From a virus (lineage: Duplodnaviria > Heunggongvirae > Uroviricota > Caudoviricetes), in IMG/VR virus record IMGVR_UViG_2684622775_000004, positions 1-9,552 of that record: a stretch of DNA of 9,552 nt; one strand, given 5' to 3'. Made by a program: the position numbers and the translations under genes. Numbering within the stretch: position 1 is the first letter of the stretch; every line of letters starts with the position of its first letter. Positions 6,563 through 9,381 of this stretch are shown one piece after another. A model generated the notes under the pieces. It was given only the letters and a program-made list of their open reading frames with translations, was not told the origin of the DNA and did no database searches.

Positions 6563-6919
6563 TTAGCGTGGAAAAAATTGTGTCGTGTTCTGAATGCTTT
6601 CGGTAAACAATAATGAGTTGTCAAAGGTATAGTAATACCTTTTGTGTTCATGGACATTTGTAACCCATCGGAAAACTCCAGCTTTAGCCAGATTTTCCCT
6701 GTATTCATGAAATGTGATTTCTCTTGATTTCAACTTATGAGAGTAAGTTTCTATAAGTCGCGTGTCTCTGCGAAATTTAACATTCACAACCTCCTCAAGT
6801 CCTTTTATTAACACTGCGTTATCATTTTTCAATACAACGTGAATATTACCTGTGGCTAAATAGTAAATGTAATGTGAGACATTGTGACGTTTTAGTTCAG
6901 AGTAAAATCGGTCACAGTT
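6563..6919 (-). pseudogene. C-terminal portion of a ybcV-like (DUF1398-type) prophage gene, disrupted by the IS66-family insertion
   Basis: The - strand reading frame is open from 6919 to stop 6563 with no start codon at its 5' end; it continues in frame from the fragment at 9374..9435 across the IS. The reconstructed intact product is 136 aa, the length recalled for DLP12 YbcV. The family assignment is from memory. Confidence 0.55.
6912..6919. repeat. Left copy of the 8-bp target-site duplication TCACAGTT
   Basis: Identical 8-mer directly abuts both IS ends (6912-6919 and 9374-9381). Confidence 0.85.
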
Positions 6920-7000
6920 GTAAGCGTCGTCTCAGCACCGTCTGGCAGATCCTGAAATTCCTGAGAGAATAGTGGACACCAAATATGGTGGACGCAATCC

Positions 7001-7405
7001 ATGAAATCATTAACCGCAGTGCGTAAAAAAAGCCCTAATTATCCCGTTGAGTTCAAAATCAAAATGGTTGAACTCTCGCATCGACCAGAGATCTCCGTAG
7101 CGCAACTCGCTCGTGAGCATGGGATCAACGATAATTTGCTGTTCAAGTGGCGCCAGTACTGGCGCGAAGGAAAACTACGTCCTCCTTCAACAACAGAAAA
7201 CAACGTGCCTGAGCTGCTCCCGATAACACTTGATGCCGAAGATGTTGTCCCTACAACCTCCCCCCGGTCACAACCTGTAGCTGCTGCGACACCTGAATCA
7301 CTCAATATCAGCTGTGAAGTGACGTTCCGGCACGGATCACTCCGTCTGAATGGTGCCATCAGCGAAAATATCCTGAACCTGCTGATACGGGAGCTCAAAC
7401 GTTGA
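7001..7405 (+). CDS. tnpA: IS66-family accessory protein TnpA (orfA, helix-turn-helix)
   Basis: 134-aa product MKSLTAVRKKSPNYPVEFKIKMVELSHRPEISVAQLAREHGINDNLLFKWRQYWREGKL... is the characteristic IS66 orfA N-terminus. Its stop overlaps the orfB start (TTGA). Confidence 0.85.
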   Translation: MKSLTAVRKKSPNYPVEFKIKMVELSHRPEISVAQLAREHGINDNLLFKWRQYWREGKLRPPSTTENNVPELLPITLDAEDVVPTTSPRSQPVAAATPESLNISCEVTFRHGSLRLNGAISENILNLLIRELKR

Positions 7406-7749
7406 TCCCATTACCATCAGGGACAAAGATCTGGCTGGTCGCTGGCATCACCGATATGAGAAACGGCTTCAACGGCCTGGCGGCAAAGGTGCAGACGACG
7501 CTGAAAGACGATCCGATGTCAGGTCACGTTTTTATCTTCCGTGGGCGTAATGGCAGTCAGGTAAAGCTCCTCTGGTCTACCGGCGATGGACTGTGTCTGC
7601 TGACCAAACGGCTGGAGCGCGGCCGCTTCGCCTGGCCGTCAGCCCGGGATGGCAAAGTGTTCCTCACACCGGCACAGCTGGCGATGCTGCTGGAAGGTAT
7701 CGACTGGCGGCAGCCTAAAAGACTGCTTACGTCCCTGACTATGTTGTAA
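7402..7749 (+). CDS. tnpB: IS66-family TnpB (orfB)
   Basis: Product ...IPLPSGTKIWLVAGITDMRNGFNGLAAKVQTTLKDDPMSGHVFIFRGRNGSQVKLLWSTGDGLCLLTKRLERGRFAWP... matches the conserved IS66 orfB. TTG start overlapping the tnpA stop suggests translational coupling. Confidence 0.85.
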   Translation: MIPLPSGTKIWLVAGITDMRNGFNGLAAKVQTTLKDDPMSGHVFIFRGRNGSQVKLLWSTGDGLCLLTKRLERGRFAWPSARDGKVFLTPAQLAMLLEGIDWRQPKRLLTSLTML

Positions 7750-7797
7750 GCCTCTTTATCCTGGTCGACGCTGAATGAGCCTGGTAATATACCCGGT

Positions 7798-9336
7798 ATG
7801 AGCAGCTCACTTCCTGACGATATCAATGCACTGAAACGTCTCCTTGCCGAACAGGAGGCGCTGAACCGTGCCCTGCAGGAAAAGCTGAACGAGCGTGAAC
7901 GCGAAATAGACCATCTGCAGGCACAGCTGGATAAGCTGCGCCGGATGAACTTCGGCAGCCGCTCGGAAAAAGTCTCCCGTCGTATCGCACAGATGGAAGC
8001 TGACCTGAAGGCACTTCAGAAAGAAAGTGATACCCTTACCGGTCGGGTTGACGACCCGGCCGTGCAGCGCCCGCTGCGTCAAACCCGCACCCGCAAACCG
8101 TTCCCCGAATCACTCCCCCGCGATGAAAAACGGCTGCTGCCGGCAGCGTCATGCTGCCCGGAATGTGGAGGCTCGCTGAGCTATCTGGGTGAGGATGCCG
8201 CCGAACAGCTGGAGCTGATGCGCAGCGCCTTCCGGGTTATCCGGACTGTACGTGAAAAGCATGCCTGTACTCAGTGCGATGCCATCGTGCAGGCCCCCGC
8301 GCCTTCACGGCCCATCGAGCGGGGTATCGCAGGACCGGGGCTGCTGGCCCGCGTGCTGATCTCAAAGTATGCAGAGCACACCCCGCTGTACCGCCAGTCT
8401 GAAATGTACGGCCGCCAGGGCGTGGAGCTGAGTCGTTCACTGCTGTCGGGCTGGGTGGATGCATGCTGCCGGCTACTGTCACCGCTGGAAGAAGCGCTTC
8501 AGGACTATGTGCTGACTGACGGTAAGCTCCATGCTGATGACACGCCTGTCCCGGTGCTGTTGCCAGGCAATAAGAAAACGAAGACCGGGCGGTTATGGAC
8601 CTACGTTCGTGACGACCGTAACGCCGGGTCAACGCTGGCGCCGGCGGTGTGGTTCGCTTACAGCCCGGACAGAAAAGGCATCCATCCGCAGACCCATCTT
8701 GCGGGGTTCAGTGGTGTACTGCAGGCGGATGCATACGCCGGGTTCAACGAGCTGTACCGGGATGGCCGGATAACGGAAGCCGCCTGTTGGGCTCACGCCC
8801 GCCGTAAAATCCACGATGTGCACGTTCGCACCCCGTCAGCCCTGACGGAGGAAGCGCTGAAACGGATCGGCGAACTGTACGCCATCGAGGCAGAGATAAG
8901 GGGAATGACGGCGGAGCAGCGCCTTGCCGAACGTCAGTTGAAAACGAAACCGCTGCTGAAATCCCTGGAAAGCTGGCTGCGTGAAAAGATGAAAACCCTG
9001 TCGCGACACTCAGAACTGGCGAAAGCGTTCGCATACGCCCTGAACCAGTGGCCGGCGCTGACGTACTATGCAGATGATGGCTGGGCTGAGGCGGACAATA
9101 ACATCGCTGAAAATGCGTTGCGGATGGTCAGTCTGGGCCGCAAAAACTACCTGTTCTTCGGTTCGGATCATGGAGGAGAGCGGGGAGCGCTGCTGTACAG
9201 CCTGATCGGGACGTGCAAACTGAACGGAGTGGAGCCAGAAAGCTACCTCCGCTATGTCCTTGACGTCATAGCCGACTGGCCGATAAACCGGGTCGGCGAA
9301 CTGCTCCCCTGGCGCGTAGCACTGCCGACTGAATAA
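7798..9336 (+). CDS. tnpC: IS66-family transposase TnpC (orfC)
   Basis: 512-aa product with an N-terminal coiled-coil/leucine-zipper region, zinc-finger-like CPECGG...CTQCD, and a C-terminal DDE-type catalytic region. This is the typical IS66 transposase layout. Confidence 0.9.
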
Positions 9337-9373
9337 CACATCCCCGTCAATACGGTTCTTGCTGCACGCTTAC

Positions 9374-9381
9374 TCACAGTT
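9374..9381. repeat. Right copy of the 8-bp target-site duplication TCACAGTT
   Basis: Identical to 6912-6919 and directly abuts the right IS end. Confidence 0.85.

Follow-up and report, generated by a model that had tools for sequence, protein, structure and literature searches.

Results and discussion

The prophage locus

The stretch of DNA analyzed here (the window) comprises 9,552 nucleotides, positions 1 to 9,552 of the IMG/VR virus record IMGVR_UViG_2684622775_000004 (Caudoviricetes). Homology and the annotation of relatives identify it as the start of the late region of a lambdoid Escherichia coli prophage. The plus strand carries, in this order, rem, a DUF968 gene, RusA, the antiterminator Q, the gene of an ORF6N protein, an AraC-family regulator, two holin-family genes and a GH108 endolysin. 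The genes bor and ybcV come after the lysis genes, on the minus strand, and the second of them is interrupted by an insertion sequence. No close relative was found in the phage collection searched, where the best match extends over 32% of the query and is 90% identical.

An ISEc22 element of the IS66 family

A complete insertion sequence of 2454 bp occupies positions 6920..9373 on the plus strand, with all three of its ORFs intact. The first, tnpA (7001..7405, plus strand), encodes an accessory HTH protein of 134 aa (PF01527 HTH_Tnp_1, E 9e-12; NF047595 over the cut-off). It is followed by tnpB (7402..7749, plus strand), whose product is an IS66 Orf2-type accessory protein of 115 aa (PF05717, TnpB_IS66, E 1.6e-38; NF033819 over the cut-off) and whose TTG start overlaps the TGA stop of tnpA as TTGA at 7402-7405. 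The third ORF, tnpC (7798..9336, plus strand), encodes a DDE transposase of IS66 type with 512 aa, which covers positions 1-283 of the 284 of PF03050 (DDE_Tnp_IS66, E 5e-107) and reaches 467.8 bits against NF033517, for which the cut-off is 180. This protein also carries PF13007, PF13005 and PF13817, corresponding to the IS66 leucine-zipper, zinc-finger and C-terminal domains. Pfam and NCBIfam models agree on all three IS66 proteins, in line with the complete three-gene element described in an earlier reading of this DNA made from the letters alone (hereafter the sequence-only reading).

A megablast search of 5,426 complete E. coli genomes with the 2454 bp as query returned many full-length copies at 100% identity, labeled by RefSeq/PGAP as 'IS66-like element ISEc22 family transposase', plus tnpA and tnpB. 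The DNA of tnpA is the same as in copies annotated WP_000839179.1 and that of tnpC the same as in copies annotated WP_000099202.1, while RefSeq gives the tnpB at the same coordinates in other copies as WP_000612626.1. By the naming rule of ISfinder, two elements are the same IS if they share more than 90% nucleotide or more than 95% protein identity. Judged from its identity to the RefSeq copies, the element is almost certainly the known ISEc22. The name rests on the RefSeq annotation and on the published length, ISEc22 being listed as an IS66-family element of 2454 bp (PMC5001619, Table 2). The 100% identity to copies labeled ISEc22 family in RefSeq speaks for this element over the candidates put forward by the sequence-only reading, ISEc8, ISEc23 and IS682.

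Ends and target-site duplication

The element opens with GTAAGCG at 6920, a terminus typical of the IS66 family, and closes with CGCTTAC at 9373. Comparing each end with the other, the right one as its reverse complement, we delimited a left terminal inverted repeat (IRL, 6920..6945, plus strand) beginning with GTAAGCGT and a right one (IRR, 9348..9373, minus strand) ending in ACGCTTAC. These repeats are imperfect, with 8 of 8 positions matching at the tips and 17 of 26 overall, and GTAAGCGT is present at both tips of the element. Directly outside them, the 8-mer TCACAGTT stands at 6912..6919 and again at 9374..9381, as read in the window and checked by script. The direct repeat is exactly 8 bp long, the 9th base being different, and the probability that two 8-mers agree by chance at positions set by the IS ends is 4^-8, about 1.5e-5. 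In the empty alleles of E. coli strains EC11 and ARS-C101 (see below), TCACAGTT occurs once at this site. The sequence-only reading had proposed an IS66-family element with ends at 6920 and 9373, flanked by identical 8-mers as a perfect duplication; re-inspection agrees with it on the positions, the family and the duplication alike.

Other copies of ISEc22

Among the complete E. coli genomes, 1,090 records have a best copy with 99% identity or more to the element. In 3,553 records the best match reaches 80-90% identity only, and these matches are taken, from their sequence, to be related IS66-family members and not ISEc22. Genomes with any match have a median of 3 places each. Seven copies from other loci were compared with the one in the window. 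Six of the seven, all from unrelated loci, are base-for-base identical to it; both their ends coincide with those in the window, and every one of them is flanked by a perfect 8-bp duplication of its own (TACAATGG, GATCAGGC, GATTTATT, GCTTATTG, AAATATTC and GCTGATAC). Since these six copies share them, both the ends (6920 and 9373) and the duplication of 8 bp belong to the element as such and are no coincidence of the site. The seventh copy, which is plasmid-borne, is frameshifted, lies beside other IS debris and has no duplication.

Because identical copies with distinct duplications are spread over many genomes, the element is likely to be currently active, and the copy in the window is very probably still able to move. 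In the one experimental record found, on the mobilome of Klebsiella pneumoniae, just one read across a transposition junction came from ISEc22, and circle junctions were absent (PMC5001619, Table 2). Compared with the ISEc22 copies annotated in E. coli and Klebsiella genomes and plasmids, the present one agrees with many over all 2454 bp at 100% identity, and also in its three genes, its ends and the length of its duplication; the insertion site alone differs, and the ybcV site is unoccupied in the collections searched. The group formed by ISEc8, ISEc23 and IS679/IS682 shares with the element the tnpA-tnpB-tnpC layout, the GTAAGCG termini and the 8-bp duplications. The features of the IS66 family are reportedly set out by Han et al. 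2001 (J Bacteriol 183:4296) and Gourbeyre et al. 2010 (Res Microbiol 161:136).

The interrupted ybcV-like gene and its empty site

The interrupted gene, a ybcV-like member of the DUF1398 family, starts at 9435 on the minus strand. Its 5' fragment (9374..9435, minus strand) consists of codons 1-20 plus 2 nt, and the frame stops on entering the IS end, reading MAQVALFKEIFDQVRKDLNC-E-stop (…DLNC-E-stop). The 3' fragment (6563..6919, minus strand) holds the remainder of the ORF together with the 8 bp of the duplication and is severed from the start codon. Read from 6919 to 6563, this piece is preceded in frame by a stop just within the IS, and its first start codon is a TTG at 6832. We rejected the resulting 89-aa ORF (6563-6832) as a gene, since it is merely the tail of the split ybcV frame. 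The ybcV-like gene is thus inactivated by the insertion.

Removing positions 6920-9381 gives a continuous minus-strand ORF of 136 codons, the same sequence as quoted by the sequence-only reading, whose claim that an IS splits a ybcV-like gene and that excision restores it was reproduced by script and by the DUF1398 match. The restored protein matches PF07166 (DUF1398) over positions 1-119 of 119 (E 4e-44) and the sequence of PDB 2HH8 (YdfO) with an E-value of 6e-68. It is 86% identical to the annotated ybcV of a DLP12-type locus, where the same bor-ybcV order is found. Both the full-length match to the model and the synteny beside bor in a lambdoid prophage place it in DUF1398. As a possible defence protein it has no match in PADLOC and none in NCBIfam, and none of the publications mentioning DUF1398 appears from its title and abstract to address function.

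The uninterrupted allele exists in nature. Using the rebuilt site (752 bp) as query, we found nine complete genomes matching over the full length at 99.7-99.9% identity, all annotated 'DUF1398 family protein'. In strain EC11 the 8-mer is present once at the site, and the annotated protein of 136 aa (WP_000079570.1) is the same as the restored ORF. The closest relative is a prophage in the E. coli strain ARS-C101, which came from the faeces of beef cattle in Texas. After removal of the IS and one copy of the duplication, the window (7090 bp) is colinear and ungapped with it, with 4 substitutions, which makes it a 99.94% identical sister prophage with an empty site. Its DUF1398 protein of 136 aa is intact and also identical to the restored ORF (WP_000079570.1). 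The sole difference from ARS-C101 within the 3' fragment of ybcV is at position 6683 of the window, and this substitution must be synonymous because the restored protein and that of ARS-C101 are the same, under the same accession. The two fragments recognized by the sequence-only reading are therefore contiguous in at least these two strains, both carrying an intact empty site.

The neighboring bor gene

Downstream of ybcV lies an intact bor (6045..6338, minus strand) encoding the lipoprotein Bor (PF06291, Lambda_Bor, E 1e-30), which is 87% identical to the Bor of the DLP12-type locus. The sequence-only reading placed IS sequence about 225 bp upstream of the bor start and supposed that the insertion could alter bor expression. 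The real distance from the left IS end to the bor ATG (6338) is 581 bp; the gap between the ybcV stop (6563) and that ATG is 224 bp, to which the earlier figure corresponds. As bor is a serum-resistance lipoprotein gene, an effect on it, if true, would be the sole medically relevant angle of this insertion, but it finds no support here.

The 270 bp upstream of bor are the same as in the empty allele of ARS-C101 and largely conserved in the DLP12-type locus. The PhoP-box pattern is (T/G)GTTTA-N5-(T/G)GTTTA. A search of the window for this pattern gave one hit, with 0.01 expected: the PhoP-box-like direct repeat TGTTTAGGTTTTGTTTA (6391..6407, minus strand), which lies 53 bp before the start codon of bor. 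The same repeat stands upstream of the DLP12-type bor. In E. coli, borD is a member of the PhoP regulon (PMC5740661). Considering the unchanged upstream region, the conserved PhoP-box-like repeat and the presence of borD in the PhoP regulon, bor most likely keeps its own regulated promoter.

Two ways in which the insertion could nevertheless affect bor were considered. If ybcV and bor were co-transcribed from a promoter upstream of ybcV, the IS would block the read-through and lower bor. Both genes are on the same strand, separated by 224 bp in which no terminator-like site is predicted, and two terminator-like hairpins are predicted on the minus strand inside the IS. However, a conserved promoter-like region with the PhoP-box-like repeat precedes bor itself, and in lysogens lambda bor is transcribed from a promoter of its own, which makes such polarity unlikely. 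Pattern scans for promoters and terminators are weak evidence either way on this point. Loss of read-through would lower bor, not raise it, and the effect may be modest.

The second possibility is that the left IS end supplies an outward or hybrid promoter from which bor is transcribed, or which otherwise changes its transcription. It follows the suggestion of the sequence-only reading that bor expression could be altered, and seems very unlikely to us. The left end does face the 3' piece of ybcV and bor, both on the minus strand, and many IS families create outward or hybrid promoters, although we know of none reported for IS66-family ends. The distance of 581 bp, in place of the supposed 225 bp, speaks against it, as do consensus scans in which, at the tool threshold, the left IS end showed no outward sigma-70-like site on the minus strand and 6850-9552 no sigma-70-like promoter on either strand. 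The region upstream of bor, with its PhoP-box-like repeat, is likewise unaltered, and borD is PhoP-regulated. The reading in which bor retains its own promoter is the one we prefer, and the insertion is not expected to change bor expression by much.

Age of the insertion

The insertion is recent and private to the strain. The occupied junction has no counterpart in the collections searched: a left-junction query (601 bp) found no place at least 80% covered in the 5,426 complete E. coli genomes, the exact left and right junction strings are absent from the GTDB species representatives, and the exact junction patterns are absent from the JGI metagenomes. The split gene has not decayed since the insertion. 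The perfect duplication, the undecayed gene, the common form of the IS and the 99.94% identical sister prophage with an empty site all lead to a recent, strain-private event, and in this respect the sequence-only reading, which had argued for a recent insertion, was right.

It is almost certainly not the case that the element is an ancient, inactive remnant or that the assembly wrongly joined unrelated sequences at a repeat. The window does end 20 bp into an IS3, as is typical of short-read contig breaks, and repeats thus probably did disturb this assembly. However, both junctions of ISEc22 are precise and flanked by a perfect duplication of 8 bp (a chimera would not give a matching duplication at both sides), the rejoined flanks form an allele that exists in nature, and none of the three ORFs differs from the common multi-copy form.

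At its right edge (9533-9552) the window contains the first 20 bases of IS3 (TGATCTTACCCAGCAATAGT), with AAT before them. ARS-C101 has a complete IS3 of 1258 bp with an AAT duplication at exactly that site (13071-14328), and in EC11 an IS3 transposase is annotated at the same place. Since IS3 sits there in both strains, the common ancestor already had it, and ISEc22, at a distance of 159 bp, is the younger insertion. The end of the window may mark a contig break at the IS3 repeat.

Interpretation

We consider that ISEc22 transposed into the ybcV-like gene in a recent event private to this strain, leaving the gene inactive and bor with its own upstream region, and we give this reading a probability of about 0.96. 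From what is known of the family, a copy of ISEc22 with tnpA, tnpB and the DDE transposase gene tnpC would have moved into codon 20/21 of the ybcV-like DUF1398 gene, which is part of a bor-ybcV accessory module in a lambdoid E. coli prophage. A staggered 8-bp cut at TCACAGTT would then have been repaired, giving rise to the flanking duplication. The 5' piece now ends after 21 codons at the stop in the IS end, and the 3' piece is left without a start codon or promoter of its own.

ISEc22 lies in sense orientation relative to late transcription, with Q, the holins and the endolysin upstream of it and, in relatives, the terminase downstream. It is conceivable that on prophage induction the antiterminated, Q-dependent late transcription reads through tnpA-tnpB-tnpC and couples a burst of transposase, or packaging of the IS into virions, to the lytic cycle, but we regard this as quite unlikely.

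The insertion into ybcV is a routine and clean event involving a known element, so its importance beyond annotation is slight. It adds one further case of ISEc22 landing in prophage DNA and makes the strain a natural knock-out of the DUF1398 (YbcV-like) gene. As a strain-specific marker, it could serve for typing or for dating the split from ARS-C101-like strains.

Comparison with DLP12 and other features of the prophage

The bor-ybcV module of the cryptic prophage DLP12 (E. coli K-12 type), studied here in ECOR29, has the same gene order, with the lysis genes first, bor and ybcV next on the opposite strand, and the packaging genes last. The region upstream of bor with the PhoP-box-like repeat is common to both loci. 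They differ in the lysis cassette, which is essD/rrrD/rzpD in DLP12, whereas here it consists of two holin-family genes and a GH108 endolysin. In addition, ybcV is interrupted here, and after it stands IS3, where DLP12 has ybcW/ylcI.

The lysis cassette of the window extends over 4451-6044, and its two holin-family genes are different from each other (PF16931 and PF05449), the endolysin combining GH108 and PG_binding_3. The endolysin stop and bor are separated by 317 bp in which no spanin (Rz/Rz1) ORF was recognizable, and the annotation of the relatives likewise has none. Between the Q/ORF6N region and the holins, the AraC-family HTH regulator (3597-4340, plus strand) occupies a moron-like position in the late operon; in relatives it is annotated merely as 'helix-turn-helix domain-containing protein'.

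Directly after the Q gene and before the ORF6N gene, three Rfam families match above their gathering scores on the plus strand (2640-2835 as a whole): c4-a1b1 targets (2640-2692), the isrK Hfq-binding RNA (2653-2727) and the C4 antisense RNA (2750-2835). This region looks like an antisense switch of the P1/P7 C4 type or the Gifsy-1 isrK type over the ORF6N (antirepressor-like) gene. The ORF6N-domain gene itself (2886-3374, plus strand, 162 aa) is open here, and for EC11 and ARS-C101 the annotation lists the homologue as a pseudogene 'missing C-terminus'. Its protein also matches the PADLOC candidate-system models PDC-S05 with an E-value of 7e-10.

At the left end of the window, positions 1-505, with rem (205-456), are common to ARS-C101. 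In EC11 and several other relatives just bases 1-77 align and homology returns at 506, which places a mosaic boundary near position 506.
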